Part shown: positions 10,790 to 13,916 of the stretch, piece by piece
Layout of the letters: the number at the start of each line of letters is the position of its first letter
How positions within the stretch are numbered: position 1 is the stretch's first letter
DNA from: a virus
Virus genome (UHGV): UHGV-0225651
Strand: one strand, 5' to 3'
DNA: 14,145 nt
The notes under the pieces: generated by a model
Database searches by the model: none
What the model was told of the DNA's origin: nothing
The model's input: only the letters and a program-made list of their open reading frames with translations
Translations under genes and position numbers: made by a program

Positions 10790-10869
10790 CTCCGTTTAGC
10801 TCAGTTTGGTTTAGCAGCACTTGCTTTGGGAGCAAGGGGTCGAGGGTTCAAATCCTTCAACGGAGACCA
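10790..10869 (+). tRNA. tRNA-Pro (anticodon TGG)
   Basis: Acceptor CTCCGTT/AACGGAG; anticodon stem CTTGC/GCAAG with loop TTTGGGA; T-arm GAGGG-TTCAAAT-CCTTC; CCA encoded. Confidence 0.85.
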
Positions 10870-10876
10870 AATTAAT

Positions 10877-10954
10877 GTTCCAGTAGACAAAATGGTAAAG
10901 TCACCACTCTTTCAAAGTGGATATTTGAGGGTTCAAATCCCTTCTGGAACGCCA
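10877..10954 (+). tRNA. tRNA-Glu (anticodon TTC)
   Basis: Acceptor GTTCCAG/CTGGAAC; anticodon stem CCACT/AGTGG with loop CTTTCAA; T-loop GGTTCAAATCC; CCA encoded. Confidence 0.85.
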
Positions 10955-11044
10955 GTTTTGACAGAAGACCAATTACAGCAAACTTAATCTACTCATCTGA
11001 AAGTTAATCGGACAAAGAAGATATTTGGTCTGGTCATTAAGAAT

Positions 11045-11121
11045 TGCGGGTATAGAGAAAGGGCGTCTCACATGTCTCATTAGCATGGTATCGGCAGGTT
11101 CGACTCCTGCACCCGCCTCCA
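11045..11121 (+). tRNA. tRNA with CAT anticodon (Met-type), with unpaired 1:72 (T1/C72)
   Basis: T-arm GCAGG-TTCGACT-CCTGC; acceptor 3' strand ACCCGCC then T and CCA; anticodon stem CATGT/GCATG with loop CTCATTA; D-stem GAGA/TCTC. The 1:72 mismatch and T at position 37 are atypical. Confidence 0.65.
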
Positions 11122-11205
11122 AATTTACAGAAGACCGTTTACAGCAATATTTATTAAATTTTTAGCGGAAAAAATTGAAATATACGGTCTGGTAATACTA
11201 AACAT

Positions 11206-11282
11206 GGTTAGGAAGCACATAAGGTATGTGCGGTCGCCTGTTAAGCGAATGGCACAGGGTTCGAATCCCTGACTAACCGCCA
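11206..11282 (+). tRNA. tRNA-Asn (anticodon GTT)
   Basis: Acceptor GGTTAGG/ACTAACC (one mismatch at 7:66); D-stem GCAC/GTGC; anticodon loop CTGTTAA; T-arm CAGGG-TTCGAAT-CCCTG; CCA encoded. Confidence 0.75.
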
Positions 11283-11351
11283 AATTTAGGAGAGAAGCGA
11301 TTGCTCACCGATTTGTAAGGTGCAAGTCCTTAGCCTGAATAGAAATTAAAT

Positions 11352-11439
11352 GTGTCGTTATCCCGTAGATGGTAGCGGTGGGGACTGTAAATCCCTTGTC
11401 ATTGAGACTCGGTAGGTTCGACTCCTACACGGCACACCA
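11352..11439 (+). tRNA. tRNA-Tyr (anticodon GTA), long variable arm
   Basis: Acceptor GTGTCGT/ACGGCAC; anticodon stem GGGGA/TCCCT with loop CTGTAAA; long variable arm of about 15 nt; T-arm GTAGG-TTCGACT-CCTAC; CCA encoded. Confidence 0.8.
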
Positions 11440-11444
11440 ATAAA

Positions 11445-11522
11445 GGTTATGTAGTTTAATTTGGTTAAAATACTCCCCTGTCACGGGAGATGATGAGGGT
11501 TCAAATCCCTTCGTAACCGCCA
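11445..11522 (+). tRNA. tRNA-Asp (anticodon GTC)
   Basis: Acceptor GGTTATG/CGTAACC; anticodon stem CTCCC/GGGAG with loop CTGTCAC; T-loop GGTTCAAATCC; CCA encoded. Confidence 0.85.
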
Positions 11523-11728
11523 ATTTTGAGAGGGCTATTTTAGCCCCTCCCTTAAAGGGTTCTTACGAGTATCCTTTAAAGGAGCAGAAGACCAAATACA
11601 GCAAGAACGTATGAAAATTTCAAGCCAATTTAATTTTGAAAAATTTAAAACTTGGTCTGGCTCAACAAATTTACAGAAGACCGTTTACAGCAAAACTTAA
11701 ACAATCTATTTCTCGGTAAAGAAAAGGC

Positions 11729-11780
11729 GAAGGTTCGATTCCTTCACTCGGCAGATGTCGAGTTGGTGTAATGGTAGCAC
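11729..11780 (+). ncRNA. Circularly permuted tRNA-like module (T-arm, loop-closed acceptor helix, D-arm); candidate tRNA mimic or permuted tRNA
   Basis: Canonical T-arm GAAGG-TTCGATT-CCTTC (11729-11745), then a 7-bp acceptor-like helix ACTCGGC/GTCGAGT closed by tetraloop AGAT (11746-11763), then TG and D-arm GTGT-AATGGTA-GCAC (11766-11780). No anticodon arm in the canonical position. Flanked by a complementary stem AGACCGTT (11678-11685) / AACGGTCT (11795-11802). Confidence 0.5.
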
Positions 11781-11806
11781 TTAAGATGATAAACAACGGT
11801 CTGGTA

Positions 11807-11948
11807 ATTATCTTTGTAGATAAGTTATTAAGCTTACCTGTGAGTATGCGACCACAAAGGGTGAAAGGGTAAATTCTAGATTTAAACCCAACAAGGCACA
11901 TCGCTACAGACCTTAAGCAAGTCTGGGTAGCTTATCTACAAAGATAAT
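11807..11948 (+). ncRNA. Structured RNA domain closed by an 18-bp perfect long-range helix
   Basis: ATTATCTTTGTAGATAAG (11807-11824) is the exact reverse complement of CTTATCTACAAAGATAAT (11931-11948), enclosing about 106 nt with no ORF; lies between the permuted tRNA-like module and tRNA-Lys. Confidence 0.4.
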
Positions 11949-11953
11949 TTAAT

Positions 11954-12029
11954 GGAAGTGTAGCAGAATGGTGATGCGGCAGACTTTTAATCTGACAGGC
12001 GATGGGTTCGAATCCCTCCACTTCTACCA
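11954..12029 (+). tRNA. tRNA-Lys (anticodon TTT)
   Basis: Acceptor GGAAGTG/CACTTCT; anticodon stem CAGA/TCTG with loop CTTTTAA; T-loop GGTTCGAATCC with a weak T-stem; CCA encoded. Paralogous in sequence to the tRNA at 13264. Confidence 0.7.
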
Positions 12030-12107
12030 AATTCACCCTTAACTGAGAAACACCTGCGCGGCTGGAAACACCCACTCAACAGTTTCTCTAACTAGGGTAC
12101 TTATTCT

Positions 12108-12184
12108 GGTTCAGTCGCAGATAAGGTAATGCAAGGGTTTCATAAGCCCTATGAATGTGAGTTCGATTCTCACCTGAACCTCCA
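12108..12184 (+). tRNA. tRNA with CAT anticodon (elongator Met or Ile2-type)
   Basis: Acceptor GGTTCAG/CTGAACC; anticodon stem AGGGT/GCCCT with loop TTCATAA; T-arm GTGAG-TTCGATT-CTCAC; CCA encoded. Confidence 0.7.
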
Positions 12185-12186
12185 AT

Positions 12187-12262
12187 GCTGGTATAGTTAA
12201 GAAGGTTATAACACTCCCCTGATAAGGGAACATCGGTGGTTCGATTCCACCTACCAGTACCA
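12187..12262 (+). tRNA. tRNA-Ile (anticodon GAT)
   Basis: Acceptor GCTGGTA/TACCAGT; D-stem GTTA/TAAC; anticodon loop CTGATAA; T-arm GGTGG-TTCGATT-CCACC; CCA encoded. Confidence 0.8.
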
Positions 12263-12818: not shown

Positions 12819-12831
12819 AAGTCTTATTAGG

Positions 12832-12921
12832 GGTAGGTAGCGGCTAATGGCAGCCAAACAGTCTTGAAAACTGTTGCCACTGTAGAGATACGGTGAGGGT
12901 TCGACTCCTTTACTTACCGCC
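12832..12921 (+). tRNA. tRNA-Ser (anticodon TGA), class II long variable arm
   Basis: Acceptor GGTAGGT/ACTTACC; D-stem GGCT/AGCC; anticodon stem ACAGT/ACTGT with loop CTTGAAA; variable arm of about 19 nt; T-arm GAGGG-TTCGACT-CCTTT; 3' end G-CC followed by T (terminal A not encoded). Confidence 0.75.
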
Positions 12922-13076
12922 TAATAAGATTTAAAGCCAAGCTTCATTCGGATGTTGCTTTGGTATCCCTCGTGTATTGTCGTACACGCACAGTAAAGCA
13001 CCTAGTAGGTGTCACGGAGAAGAGATAATATCAAGCTCTCCAAAGGTTCTAGTCACCGGATTAAACAAGACTATGC

Positions 13077-13098
13077 AAAGACCAAATTAGGTCTTTTT
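13077..13098 (+). terminator. Hairpin with U-tract in a tRNA spacer (weak terminator or processing element)
   Basis: AAAGACC-aaatta-GGTCTTT followed by TT; lies within the long spacer 12922-13177. Confidence 0.3.
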
Positions 13099-13177
13099 AG
13101 AGGGCTTCTAAGGTTATTACAGCTTGTTGTGGAACCTTGTTGCTTAGGTTCTTAGAAGTTCTCTAAAAAGATTTAAT

Positions 13178-13256
13178 GGGAGATTGACGGCAACTTGGTA
13201 GACCTATCTCGCTTAGAACGAGATGCTTGAGGGTTCGAATCCCTTGTCTCCTACCA
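13178..13256 (+). tRNA. tRNA with anticodon TAG (Leu-type) but short variable arm
   Basis: Acceptor GGGAGAT/GTCTCCT with A73; anticodon stem ATCTCG/CGAGAT with loop CTTAGAA; T-loop GGTTCGAATCC; CCA encoded. Lacks the long variable arm expected for bacterial tRNA-Leu. Confidence 0.6.
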
Positions 13257-13263
13257 AATTAAT

Positions 13264-13339
13264 GCAGGTGTAGCAAAATGGTTATGCGGCTGACTCTTAA
13301 TCAGTAAGACGATGGGTTCAATTCCCTCCACCTGTACCA
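13264..13339 (+). tRNA. tRNA-Lys (anticodon CTT)
   Basis: Acceptor GCAGGTG/CACCTGT; anticodon stem GCTGA/TCAGT with loop CTCTTAA; T-loop GGTTCAATTCC; CCA encoded; paralogue of the 11954 tRNA. Confidence 0.7.
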
Positions 13340-13345
13340 AACAAT

Positions 13346-13421
13346 GGGGTCATAGTTTATATGGTTAAAATTCGAGTTTTGCAAACTTGGGAACTGAGTT
13401 CAATTCTCAGTGACTCCACCA
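13346..13421 (+). tRNA. tRNA-Ala (anticodon TGC)
   Basis: Acceptor GGGGTCA/TGACTCC giving a G3:U70 wobble (the alanine identity element); anticodon stem CGAGT/ACTTG with loop TTTGCAA; T-arm CTGAG-TTCAATT-CTCAG; CCA encoded. Confidence 0.85.
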
Positions 13422-13437
13422 ATTAGTGCATCCATAG

Positions 13438-13512
13438 TTTAAACGGGAAAATTACAGTCTTCCAAACTGAGGTTGAGGGTTCGATTCCCTCTGGATGCTC
13501 CAAATTAATGCT
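13438..13512 (+). tRNA. tRNA-Gly (anticodon TCC)
   Basis: Acceptor GCATCCA/TGGATGC; anticodon loop CTTCCAA; T-arm GAGGG-TTCGATT-CCCTC; CCA encoded. Confidence 0.8.
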
Positions 13513-13519
13513 CCTATCG

Positions 13520-13595
13520 TATAATTGGTTATTACGGTTGCCTTGTAAGCAACTTATCAGGGTTCGAGTCCTTGTGGGAGCACCAATTCAGAGGT
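13520..13595 (+). tRNA. tRNA-Thr (anticodon TGT)
   Basis: Acceptor GCTCCTA/TGGGAGC; D-stem CGTA/TACG; anticodon stem GTTGC/GCAAC with loop CTTGTAA; T-loop GGTTCGAGTCC; CCA encoded. Confidence 0.85.
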
Positions 13596-13681
13596 CAAGT
13601 GAAAGACCGCTTTGAGTCAACTGAAGACCGTAACAAATCCCACGGAGTTGAGTTAGCGGCACAACTTCAGACCTCTTTCAT

Positions 13682-13756
13682 ACTCGCTTAGTTTATATGG
13701 TAAAGCATCACCCTTACAAGATGAAGAAAAAGGTTCAAGTCCTTTAGCGAGCACCA
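13682..13756 (+). tRNA. tRNA-Val (anticodon TAC)
   Basis: Acceptor ACTCGCT/AGCGAGC (A1/C72 unpaired); anticodon loop CTTACAA flanked by stem TCACC/GATGA (one mismatch); T-arm AAAGG-TTCAAGT-CCTTT; CCA encoded. Confidence 0.7.
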
Positions 13757-13757
13757 T

Positions 13758-13835
13758 GTTCCAGTATCCCAATTGGCAGAGGATGCAAGCTCAAACCTTG
13801 TACTAGTGACGGTTCGAATCCGTCTTGGAACACCA
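13758..13835 (+). tRNA. tRNA with anticodon CAA (Leu-type) but short variable arm
   Basis: Acceptor GTTCCAG/TTGGAAC; D-stem ATCC/GGAT; anticodon stem GCAAG/CTTGT with loop CTCAAAC; T-arm GACGG-TTCGAAT-CCGTC; CCA encoded. Confidence 0.65.
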
Positions 13836-13840
13836 ATTTT

Positions 13841-13916
13841 GCAGGATTAGTTCAAATGGATAGAGCAACAGTCTACGAAGCTGTTAATAGGGGTTCGAAT
13901 CCCTTATCCTGCGCCA
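13841..13916 (+). tRNA. tRNA-Arg (anticodon ACG)
   Basis: Acceptor GCAGGAT/ATCCTGC; D-stem GTTC/GAGC; anticodon loop CTACGAA; T-loop GGTTCGAATCC; CCA encoded. Confidence 0.85.

Follow-up and report, generated by a model that had tools for sequence, protein, structure and literature searches.

The tRNA array and its probable role in codon supply

Why does a phage carry some twenty transfer RNA (tRNA) genes side by side, are the misshapen ones among them working tRNAs, and what fills the DNA between them? These questions are raised by the virus genome UHGV-0225651, a stretch of 14,145 nucleotides (nt), referred to below as the window, in which a dense tRNA array occupies positions 10790-13916 (Table 1). 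The best overall explanation, to which we give about three chances in four, is that the array is a codon-supply island of a Felixounavirus, in which oddly built tRNAs work and non-tRNA RNA genes are interleaved. The array is ordinary and known. Less ordinary are a tRNA-Arg(UCU) of odd layout, a family of small RNAs linked to a Ro60-fold protein, and an RNA resembling transfer-messenger RNA (tmRNA); the functions proposed for them are read from sequence, covariation and gene context.

The best full-length matches of the window, at about 96% identity, are Escherichia phage VpaE1_ev035 and Felixounavirus LF110P2, and the source phage is a Felixounavirus. The stretch 10600-14145 is 93-97% identical to many Felixounavirus genomes, and matches 386 phage records, 229 of which span at least 80% of the query. 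In VpaE1_ev035 the corresponding stretch is annotated as a run of tRNAs preceded by two hypothetical proteins; the array goes on past the point where the window ends with Gln, Leu, Gln, His, Phe, Ser and Cys tRNAs, followed by the terminase. Hundreds of Felixounavirus records include the annotated array, and many insertions and deletions distinguish it between relatives.

The first-pass annotation, made by eye, had counted about 20 tRNA genes in 3.1 kb, most with encoded CCA. The count holds. There are 20 tRNA genes, all on the plus strand, and 19 encode CCA; 18 were called by ARAGORN, one by Rfam, and the tRNA-Trp was read by eye. At gathering score Rfam recognizes 17 tRNAs, including the gene at 12511-12589 missed by ARAGORN, and gives no call for the CAU tRNA at 11045 or the tRNA-Tyr with a long variable arm. 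The genes flagged by eye as atypical are not folded back into canonical cloverleaves by either program. Together with the seven further genes of the relatives, the array covers essentially all amino acids. The DNA between the tRNAs, formerly treated as spacer, holds non-tRNA RNA genes.

In the open reading frames (ORFs) of the window, the most over-represented codon is AGA, found 14.4 times per 1000 codons, or 6.9 times the value of about 2.1 in Escherichia coli. Other codons enriched over E. coli values are ACA (3.9 times), AAG (3.8 times), TCA, GTA, CTA and CCA. The enriched codons are those read by the encoded anticodons, and codon supply explains the tRNA set at least as well as the replacement of host tRNAs cut by nucleases. 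The region would be a tRNA island of the Felix O1 type, transcribed rightward from sigma-70-like promoters located just downstream of the Ro60-fold gene. Its main job would be to provide decoders for the A/U-rich codons of the phage, so that translation may continue whatever the fate of the host tRNA pool. A precedent is given by the Felixounavirus REP05-12 phages, which infect Syn61-delta-3, a strain having no tRNA-Ser(UGA/CGA), by means of their own seryl-tRNA (PMC12269064).

An oddly built tRNA-Arg(UCU)

The gene at 12511-12592 had been singled out as a tRNA with canonical acceptor and T arm, and no recognizable D arm. The Rfam alignment bears this out, as it skips the D arm, where only 4 nt are placed, and inserts 20 nt 3' of the anticodon arm. 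ARAGORN does not call the gene, even with a lowered threshold. The acceptor is made by 7 base pairs (bp; CGGGGCG/CGCCTCG), and is followed by A73 and CCA. The anticodon arm, GCGGU-CUUCUAA-ACCGC, has a 5-bp stem and a 7-nt loop with U33 and a purine in position 37; the T arm, GCGGG-UUCGAGU-CCUGC, has a loop of the GUUCRA type. No D hairpin is found between position 9 and the anticodon stem, with 7 nt lying between the two stems.

BLAST searches identified the same gene, in full length and at 82-100% identity, in 263 phage GenBank records, nearly always without annotation. Carriers include Sugarlandvirus and other Demerecviridae, Vequintavirinae, Stephanstirmvirinae, jumbo phages of 300-380 kb, and a Streptomyces phage. 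Distinct sequences amount to 61 after two pattern scans of IMG/VR. A pattern in which the anticodon was left unspecified retrieved 46 distinct members, with UCU in all but one, which has CCU.

In a gap-free alignment of 53 members, bases are paired in 80-99.5% of the cases across four helices. Values range from 96 to 99.5% in the acceptor (99.5%), anticodon (95.8%) and T (98.9%) helices, where 15 of 17 pairs feature compensatory changes; all 7 acceptor pairs and 5 anticodon pairs covary. Compensatory cells are 314, against 79 in shuffled alignments, and the covariation score reaches 0.775, while slid partners give 0.16 or less. The fourth helix, 11-13:40-42, measures 3 bp and spans the anticodon arm. 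It also covaries: C11:G42 is invariant, 12:41 is UA in 37, AU in 8 and GC in 8 members, and 13:40 is CG in 45, GC in 4 and UA in 4. The invariant sequence UAAnUGGAGUAU, found directly after this helix and next to the T arm, resembles a D loop (A14, A15, U16, U17, G18, G19, A20). Because of the helix and of the adjoining UAAnUGGAGUAU, D stem and D-loop sequence both appear to be present, in altered chain order. The 3' strand of the D stem and the D-loop sequence would be placed after the anticodon arm, with the result that the D stem encloses the latter; the relocated UAAnUGGAGUAU would bridge to the T arm, and its invariant G48-G49-A50 could supply the equivalents of G18, G19 and A20.

The arginyl-tRNA synthetase (ArgRS) of E. 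coli recognizes C35, U36 or G36, A20 in the D loop, and a purine in position 73. In the family C35 and U36 are invariant, and most members have a purine (A or G) in position 73. In Felixounavirus the slot following ...GAGTCTTTAAAGAT hosts either the odd allele or a canonical tRNA-Arg(UCU), the latter in 8 of 24 sequences; the odd allele varies by one compensated change of the anticodon stem (GCGGU/ACCGC to GCUGU/ACAGC). Since AGA is the most over-represented codon, and either allele, canonical or odd, can occupy the slot, we regard 12511-12592 as a working tRNA-Arg(UCU) with an unusual topology, presumably charged by ArgRS. A literature search for rearranged or D-armless layouts in phage tRNA-Arg found no description, and the gene is apparently an undescribed, widespread structural variant.

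In several unrelated phages a gene for an HNH endonuclease starts within about 10-20 nt of the 3' end of the odd tRNA-Arg, as in the loci of Sugarland (L104), PHA46 (L105) and Kamaji (L108) and in the Felixounavirus records JN01 and heid. This suggests that the odd tRNA-Arg travels with homing endonucleases, or is a target of them.

Other atypical tRNAs

The remaining atypical genes were compared with 21 other Felixounavirus sequences. The CAU tRNA at 11045 has the unpaired 1:72 (U1.C72) and the pyrimidine in position 37 (U37) read by eye, and an extra nucleotide before the D stem, as 3 nt separate acceptor and D stems in the ARAGORN fold; in Rfam it has just a 15.9-bit match to tRNA-Sec. Position 1 is U or C among relatives (C1.C72 in 3) while C72 is constant, and the mismatch therefore looks maintained. 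The acceptor UGCGGGU/ACCCGCC associates the mismatch to G2:C71 and C3:G70, as initiator tRNAs do, and we take it to be close to that of the E. coli initiator. The three G:C pairs 29-31:39-41 and the purine 37 of initiators are absent (stem CAUGU/GCAUG, U37). Two pairs of the T stem co-change in relatives (C:G to U:A, A:U to U:A). The gene would derive from an initiator tRNA which retained the 1:72 mismatch. The second CAU tRNA (12108-12184), which features G28-G30:C40-C42, corresponds in position to a tRNA-Thr(CGU) in VpaE1_ev035, and could be either a Met or a lysidine-type Ile tRNA. One of the CAU tRNAs may be a lysidine-type tRNA-Ile, since ATA is 1.8 times enriched in the window ORFs.

The two leucine tRNAs at 13178 and 13758 lack the long arm of bacterial type II tRNAs, as had been noticed. 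Their variable loops measure 5-6 nt in ARAGORN drawings, and are short in all relatives. Both have A73 and D loops, AAUUGGCAG and AACUUGGUAG, of the type found in E. coli tRNA-Leu. In six relatives the entire anticodon stem of tRNA-Leu(UAG) is swapped with full compensation. The two would be leucine tRNAs of class I shape which keep A73 and the Leu-type D loop, and would be charged by leucyl-tRNA synthetase (LeuRS).

The enlarged D region ascribed to tRNA-Trp was confirmed, 26 nt being found between acceptor and anticodon stems. The gene is called neither by ARAGORN nor by the Rfam tRNA model, and gives a 23-bit match to the tRNA-Sec model. It has an acceptor ATGGGAC/GTCCCAT, CCA, a normal T arm and the anticodon loop CUCCAAA, and is invariant among relatives save positions 32 and 38, which vary in four of them. 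In a more distant Ounavirinae-like contig (L013, 10941-11213) a tRNA-Trp(CCA), missed by ARAGORN, has no positions 8-9 and a tiny D arm, with a 4-bp stem and a 5-nt loop; tRNA-Trp seems structurally labile in Ounavirinae-like phages. The A1/C72 pair reported for tRNA-Val is there, and is found in this genome alone. Since 17 relatives have A1:U72 or G1.U72, it is a private point change. On the evidence of their stems and identity residues, we take most of the atypical genes to be working tRNAs of unusual build, which the phage would express and the host would charge, rather than decayed copies.

A Ro60-fold protein and the small RNAs next to its gene

The ORF directly upstream of the array (9209-10624) encodes a protein for which Pfam gives DUF2828 and DUF7788 alone, with no match to the TROVE profile. 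A phmmer search against PDB sequences returned nothing, and matches were found by fold comparison only. The AlphaFold (AF2) model, built on 34 homologues, has a predicted local distance difference test score of 86. The top 11 Foldseek matches in PDB are all Ro60/TROVE proteins, aligned in full length over about 520-540 columns with template modelling scores of 0.5-0.64; Foldseek matches include Ro60 of Thermus phage phiLo. As modelled, the protein has the HEAT-repeat ring and the von Willebrand factor A fold of Ro60, and the homologue alignment features the invariant residues D279-x-S281-x-S283, T349 and D381, a pattern of the metal ion-dependent adhesion site type. The orthologous gp130 of phage Bas63 is described in the PhageMaP preprint as Ro60-like, located directly upstream of tRNAs, and able to counter the ppl defence system; its authors surmised that Y RNAs may be among the neighbouring 'tRNAs'.

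Candidates for such RNAs are found between the tRNAs. Four direct repeats start with CAGAAGACCnnnUACAGCAA and end with nnnGGUCUGG, and their variable nucleotides are complementary. The window has four copies of this stem-UACAGCAA type, where shuffled sequence would yield 0.55 per 14 kb. Three are short. The fourth (11676-11806) is long, and nearly invariant in relatives; its minimum free energy fold is exactly a YrlA-type layout, an 8-bp closing stem around a V hairpin, a T arm, a closed acceptor-like hairpin and a D arm.

Linkage to the Ro60-fold gene was analyzed in 80 IMG/VR loci chosen solely for the presence of a DUF2828 gene, at identities down to 38%. The exact Felix motif, GAAGACC...GGTCT, gave only scattered chance matches in distant loci, and the family emerged only by using CAGCAA as anchor and leaving the stem free. 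The pattern (a stem of 6 bp or more beginning with G, a gap of 2-5 nt, CAGCAA, another 20-200 nt, and the stem's complementary strand, with C as its last nucleotide and UG after it) has 83 matches on the gene strand and 2 on the opposite one; 50 matches reside within 700 nt of the DUF2828 gene, none inside the gene on its strand. A covariance model built from 23 short copies, with matches accepted at E up to 0.1, gave 75 matches, including copies outside the building set, of which 74 are on the gene strand. A match resides within 700 nt of the gene in 40 of 75 non-Felix loci, many at 10-350 nt from the start or stop codon. In the 6-bp closing helix, both bases change in 5 of the pairs, and as many as four kinds of pair occur at a single position.

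Long copies in several unrelated phages (L029, L079, L036) have T arm, acceptor hairpin and D arm in this order. The Rfam YrlA model (RF02553) aligns to the tRNA-like domain of L079 with 28.7 and 25.2 bits (gathering score 69) and has no match in the window. With the Class I RNA model (RF01414; gathering score 41.5), scores are 21.1 and 17.8 bits in the window and 24.3, 19.7 and 16 in L079; no match reaches the gathering threshold in 10 loci. Copy 2 aligns to the RF01414 consensus GaUcuCCUUACAGCAA...GagAuCUG with the same architecture. Formal membership in YrlA or RF01414 was rejected, as scores are under the Rfam gathering thresholds.

The stem-UACAGCAA RNAs would be Y-RNA-like ligands of the adjacent Ro60-fold protein, and the non-tRNA RNAs are presumably freed by the same processing enzymes as the tRNAs. 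The Ro60-fold protein tends to be encoded in one RNA island together with Y-like RNAs, tRNAs and tmRNA. Six of the IMG/VR loci with a DUF2828 gene (L029, L033, L037, L040, L046, L052), from several unrelated phages, have a complete tmRNA within a few kb, with tags ending in ...ELAVA, ...ALAA or ...VALA.

A tmRNA-like RNA devoid of the tRNA-like domain

The DNA preceding the odd tRNA-Arg (12313-12510), found after the strongest promoter of the region, encodes an RNA which begins with AGUUUUCG and aligns to positions 56-295 of the Rfam tmRNA model. The alignment is strong at the resume site AAAAUAAAUGCAAACGACAA, but the total is only 15.4 bits (gathering score 47), as neither half of the tRNA-like domain is there. 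The RNA has the tag frame, the GCA resume codon, the stops in a hairpin and the pseudoknot of tmRNA. The frame (12356-12391), AAAUAAAU-GCA AAC GAC AAU GUU UUU CUG GCA GUA GCU UGA UAG, encodes ANDNVFLAVA and ends with two stops. A match to the Rfam tmRNA_permuted model (12204-12388) was rejected, as it rests on the T arm of tRNA-Ile, and drops to 14.8 bits once tRNA-Ile is excluded.

The element was found in 626 phage records belonging to at least six families. Carriers are Felixounavirus, Erwinia Kolesnikvirus, Kuttervirus, the N4-like Ithacavirus, Klebsiella and Vibrio siphoviruses, and the P22-like temperate phage HK620, in which the element (L005/L285, 15830-16230) lies between pR'/qut and the terminator tQ. 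The loci L002, L003, L004, L006 and L007 also carry it. In 26 distinct 10-codon frames the tag reads AN[DE]xx[FYV]L[AM][VAS]A, and third codon positions are 1.8 times more variable than first and second ones in the tag frame only. In the pseudoknot CCAAU, CCGAU and CCAGU pair with AUUUGG, AUUCGG and AUCUGG, respectively. ARAGORN found no tmRNA beside 93 variants except in L283, a genuine tmRNA with a longer tag, and neither tRNA nor tmRNA in the complete HK620 genome. A literature search for phage tmRNA-like RNAs without the tRNA-like domain found no description. No mechanism fits a translated tag frame without that domain. The downstream tRNA-Arg probably just sets the 3' end of the RNA via RNase P cleavage.

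Alternative explanations

The first-pass annotation proposed that the array may in part make up for host tRNAs lost to anticodon nucleases, and that escape from tRNA-targeting defences could be the origin of the altered arms. That phage tRNAs may replace cleaved host tRNAs, with changes allowing escape, is a published hypothesis (van den Berg 2023, PMC10264068), and enterobacterial examples are on record: VapC cuts the initiator tRNA, PrrC tRNA-Lys, colicin D tRNA-Arg, colicin E5 the Tyr, His, Asn and Asp tRNAs (PMC10264068). Several features of the locus suit this proposal. Enteric VapC targets the initiator, and the initiator-like tRNA at 11045 has U37 and is devoid of the usual anticodon stem; positions 32 and 38 of tRNA-Trp vary among relatives; odd and canonical tRNA-Arg(UCU) alternate in one slot of near-identical phages, as at a locus under conflict; the neighbouring Ro60-fold protein counters a defence system. 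The anticodons of nuclease targets (Lys, Tyr, Asn, Asp, Glu) are indeed present, but their inclusion is no specific signal, because array and relatives' genes cover essentially all amino acids; with nearly every amino acid represented, known targets are not enriched. Moreover, codon bias by itself predicts the same tRNA set, the largest deviations concern the D and variable regions and not the positions of the anticodon loop known to be cleaved, and the anticodon loops of the Lys(UUU), Tyr, Asn and Asp tRNAs look ordinary. Judged from its sequences, escape from nucleases is plausible; as the main job of the array, we regard it as the weaker candidate, to be kept in mind rather than preferred. 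According to the PhageMaP preprint, Bas63 tRNAs are mostly non-essential on laboratory hosts, which speaks against a codon-supply island, and suits a conditional role of either kind, supply or nuclease replacement.

Two further explanations concern the odd genes. These might be decaying pseudo-tRNAs, or leftovers of homing endonucleases with no role in translation: software scores are low or absent, the Val mismatch is private to this genome, HNH genes come right after the odd tRNA-Arg in Sugarland, PHA46 and Kamaji, and indels abound in the array. Yet every helix is kept by compensation in the odd tRNA-Arg, tRNA-Leu(UAG) and the 11045 tRNA, the odd tRNA-Arg has one and the same anticodon loop in unrelated phage families and hosts, and AGA is the main arginine codon of the phage. 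Because of compensated stems and retained identity nucleotides (Leu, Met, Trp), the genes do not look decayed, and we consider this explanation improbable. Even less credit is given to the notion that 12511-12592 is the tRNA-like domain of a rearranged tmRNA, charged with alanine via G3:U70, the upstream tag RNA being the coding piece. It is true that the window copy features G3.U70, A73, CCA, a T arm and no D hairpin, that it lies directly 3' of the tag frame, and that phage DS6A has a tmRNA reduced to the tRNA-like part. But G3.U70 is not conserved in the family, pair 3:76 being GC in 23, CG in 9, AU in 8, GU in 7 and UA in 5 members, and the perfect 7-nt anticodon loop with UCU is conserved; the alanine reading was removed because of the former, and the two together rule it out family-wide. 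Most family members, besides, do not adjoin a tag RNA, and in other phages the tag RNA precedes a canonical tRNA-Arg, a tRNA-Leu or nothing. ARAGORN called a tmRNA solely on artificial rearrangements of tag RNA and 12511 at lowered thresholds, and such calls are uninformative.

Some points weigh against a codon-supply island with working odd tRNAs and Y-RNA-like RNAs, in addition to the Bas63 data. ARAGORN calls neither the odd tRNA-Arg nor tRNA-Trp, and Rfam scores are marginal. The L-shape of the odd tRNA-Arg is predicted, and that ArgRS recognizes the relocated A20 is something that we infer. The stem-UACAGCAA RNAs are below the Rfam gathering scores for YrlA and Class I RNA, and have U(U/A)CAGCAA in place of the GNCGAA(N)G motif of known Y RNAs. 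Finally, the closing helix was a selection criterion and its 100% pairing is circular; since pairing was selected for, the support for these RNAs is given by strand bias, position and diversity of pair types. That the tRNA-Arg(UCU) works with a rearranged D arm, and that the stem-UACAGCAA RNAs are the cognate ligands of the DUF2828 Ro60-fold protein, are two linked readings; for both to be right, we would put the odds slightly short of even.

Promoters, spacers and neighbouring genes

The coordinates of all features are in Table 1. Two spacers stand out for their folds. The one at 11807-11953 is possibly a processing site, and the long hairpin at 13090-13177 is a possible RNase III-type site. 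Other spacers also fold far better than shuffled sequences (12030-12107, z = -4.31; 13586-13681, z = -3.80; 12593-12735, z = -2.46). Two of the well-folded spacers are closed by helices of at least 23 bp. Structured spacers may serve for processing of the RNase III type, or be additional RNA genes. Erwinia phage phiEa21-4 also has the motif GGAGGUGGUCUGUAUCUC found at 12640-12657.

Short ORFs overlap the RNA genes. One of 76 amino acids (11671-11901, minus strand) runs across the long Y-RNA-like gene and matches PHROG 14433, to which no function is assigned; another of 77 (10754-10987, plus strand) runs across tRNA-Pro and tRNA-Glu. PHROG 14433 was probably built from spurious calls over RNA genes. 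Unrelated to the array are the genes for a 377-amino acid protein with three immunoglobulin-like domains (5997-7130, minus strand) and for the phage lysozyme which it adjoins (5533-5997, minus strand), ordinary structural and lysis genes.

Table 1. Features of the array and of the DNA upstream
Feature	Coordinates	Strand	Basis
Ro60-fold protein, DUF2828 + DUF7788, Bas63 gp130 orthologue	9209-10624	+	Pfam; PHROG 850 'RNA-binding protein'
Sigma-70-like promoter, TTGACA-17-TAATAT	10643-10671	+	consensus match only
Sigma-70-like promoter, TTGACA-18-TAAAGT, extended TG, 27 nt before first tRNA	10734-10763	+	consensus match only
tRNA-Pro(UGG)	10790-10869	+	ARAGORN; Rfam 54.1 bits
tRNA-Glu(UUC)	10877-10954	+	ARAGORN, Rfam
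Short stem-UACAGCAA RNA, copy 1 (Y-RNA-like / Class I-like)	10965-11033	+	repeats; covariance model (R1) 48.9 bits; RF01414 17.8 bits
CAU tRNA, initiator-like acceptor, U1.C72, U37, U73	11045-11121	+	ARAGORN
Short stem-UACAGCAA RNA, copy 2	11131-11192	+	R1 49.0 bits; RF01414 21.1 bits
tRNA-Asn(GUU)	11206-11282	+	ARAGORN, Rfam
tRNA-Tyr(GUA), long variable arm	11352-11439	+	ARAGORN
tRNA-Asp(GUC)	11445-11522	+	ARAGORN, Rfam
Short stem-UACAGCAA RNA, copy 3	11588-11660	+	R1 47.4 bits
Long stem-UACAGCAA RNA, copy 4, YrlA-type layout	11676-11806	+	pattern scans; minimum free energy fold z = -1.97
Very stable structured spacer, 23-bp closing helix	11807-11953	+	fold z = -6.45
tRNA-Lys(UUU)	11954-12029	+	ARAGORN, Rfam
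Second CAU tRNA, G1:C72, U73	12108-12184	+	ARAGORN, Rfam
tRNA-Ile(GAU)	12187-12262	+	ARAGORN, Rfam
Strongest sigma-70-like promoter of the array, TTGACA-17-TATAGT, 11/12 consensus	12278-12306	+	consensus match
tmRNA-like RNA without tRNA-like domain	12313-12510	+	Rfam tmRNA model positions 56-295, 15.4 bits (gathering 47)
tRNA-Arg(UCU), predicted rearranged D arm	12511-12592	+	Rfam tRNA 31.7 bits (12511-12589; gathering 29); family covariation
tRNA-Trp(CCA), A1:U72, G73, C31.A39 mismatch, enlarged D region	12736-12818	+	read by eye; fold; conserved in relatives
tRNA-Ser(UGA), long variable arm, no encoded CCA (3' end GCC-T)	12832-12921	+	ARAGORN
Long near-perfect hairpin after terminator-like hairpin	13090-13177	+	fold z = -5.72
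tRNA-Leu(UAG), 5-nt variable loop, A73	13178-13256	+	ARAGORN; Rfam 30.5 bits
tRNA-Lys(CUU)	13264-13339	+	ARAGORN, Rfam
tRNA-Ala(UGC)	13346-13421	+	ARAGORN, Rfam
tRNA-Gly(UCC)	13428-13502	+	ARAGORN, Rfam
tRNA-Thr(UGU)	13510-13585	+	ARAGORN, Rfam
tRNA-Val(UAC), A1.C72 mismatch	13682-13756	+	ARAGORN, Rfam
tRNA-Leu(CAA), short variable loop, A73, D loop AAUUGGCAG	13758-13835	+	ARAGORN; Rfam 43.6 bits
tRNA-Arg(ACG)	13841-13916	+	ARAGORN, Rfam

Implications

A decoding tRNA with a rearranged D arm, if real, would widen the accepted limits of tRNA architecture, and explain a gene which recurs, unannotated or as "tRNA-OTHER", in hundreds of phage genomes. If it decodes, it would also be a natural test case for research on ArgRS, EF-Tu, RNase P and the ribosome. 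The association of a class of small RNAs to DUF2828 Ro60-fold proteins would turn the published guess on Y RNAs in Bas63 into named candidates with a bearing on the ppl defence system. If the RNAs are ligands of the protein, this would be a second ribonucleoprotein of the Ro/Y-RNA type, its RNAs having the same architecture as Dictyostelium Class I RNAs. The latter are at present regarded as exclusive to social amoebae, with no core partner known, and the common architecture is a concrete lead to their binding partners. As to annotation, phage "tRNA spacers" and the short ORFs across them, as the one at 11671-11901, are probably RNA genes.

Relation to known systems

The array resembles the tRNA clusters of Felix O1, T4 and T5/BF23, which are also dense and confined to one strand, encode CCA, include interspersed small stable RNAs and homing endonucleases, and have anticodons favouring A-ending codons. 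At the array level there is no difference, and the region is that known island.

D-arm-lacking mitochondrial tRNAs and the circularly permuted tRNA genes of Cyanidioschyzon still decode. The phage tRNA-Arg(UCU) is like both in departing from the order acceptor, D, anticodon, T. It would differ from the former as D stem and D-loop sequence are kept, rather than lost with the arm, and from the latter as no circular intermediate is needed, loop and 3' strand being found after the anticodon arm in a sequence of mature order. Leucine acceptors of class I shape are also known, as animal mitochondrial tRNA-Leu and the minimal substrates of E. coli LeuRS. The phage leucine tRNAs share with them Leu anticodons on a body with a short variable loop, A73 and the D loop AAUUGGYAG; in contrast to them, they occur with a bacterial host whose own tRNA-Leu are all long-armed, and their charging is predicted.

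The E. coli tmRNA tag is ANDENYALAA. The phage tag ANDNVFLAVA resembles this sequence, and the RNA at 12313-12510 shares with standard and two-piece tmRNAs the resume context AAAUAAAU-GCA, a 10-codon tag, stops in a hairpin and a covarying pseudoknot. It differs from tmRNA in having neither acceptor strands nor T arm, and is the opposite form of the tmRNA of phage DS6A, which has a tRNA-like domain and no coding sequence.

The stem-UACAGCAA RNAs are similar to the YrlA and YrlB Y RNAs associated with Rsr/Ro60 (Chen 2014, PMC4201824; for phiLo, PMC12135203). Both are small RNAs encoded beside a Ro60-fold gene on the same strand, with 5' and 3' ends paired in a stem and a conserved single-stranded motif after the 5' strand. 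Long forms follow the order of YrlA (T arm, closed acceptor hairpin, D arm), and short forms, lacking the domain, are YrlB-like. They differ as the phage protein has DUF2828 and DUF7788 rather than the Pfam TROVE domain, and the motif is UnCAGCAA rather than GNCGAA. Class I RNAs of Dictyostelium measure 42-65 nt; their 5' G never varies and pairs with the C of CUGU at the 3' end, and a motif of 11 nt adjoins the 5' strand (Kjellin 2021, PMC7919456); pull-down experiments identified four partners, one of which is the uncharacterised DDB_G0281243. Phage RNAs and Class I RNAs (RF01414) have in common a size of about 60 nt, a 6-bp terminal stem, the 5' G paired with the C of a 3' CUG(U), a variable interior, and the 11-nt motif CCUUACAGCAA directly after the 5' strand, in which T, C, C, A and A are found in positions 3, 6, 9, 10 and 11 (alignments A2 and A3). 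In contrast to the phage RNAs, Class I RNAs are eukaryotic, apparently transcribed by RNA polymerase III from a DUSE promoter, and reported to be unique to Dictyostelia (PMC7919456).

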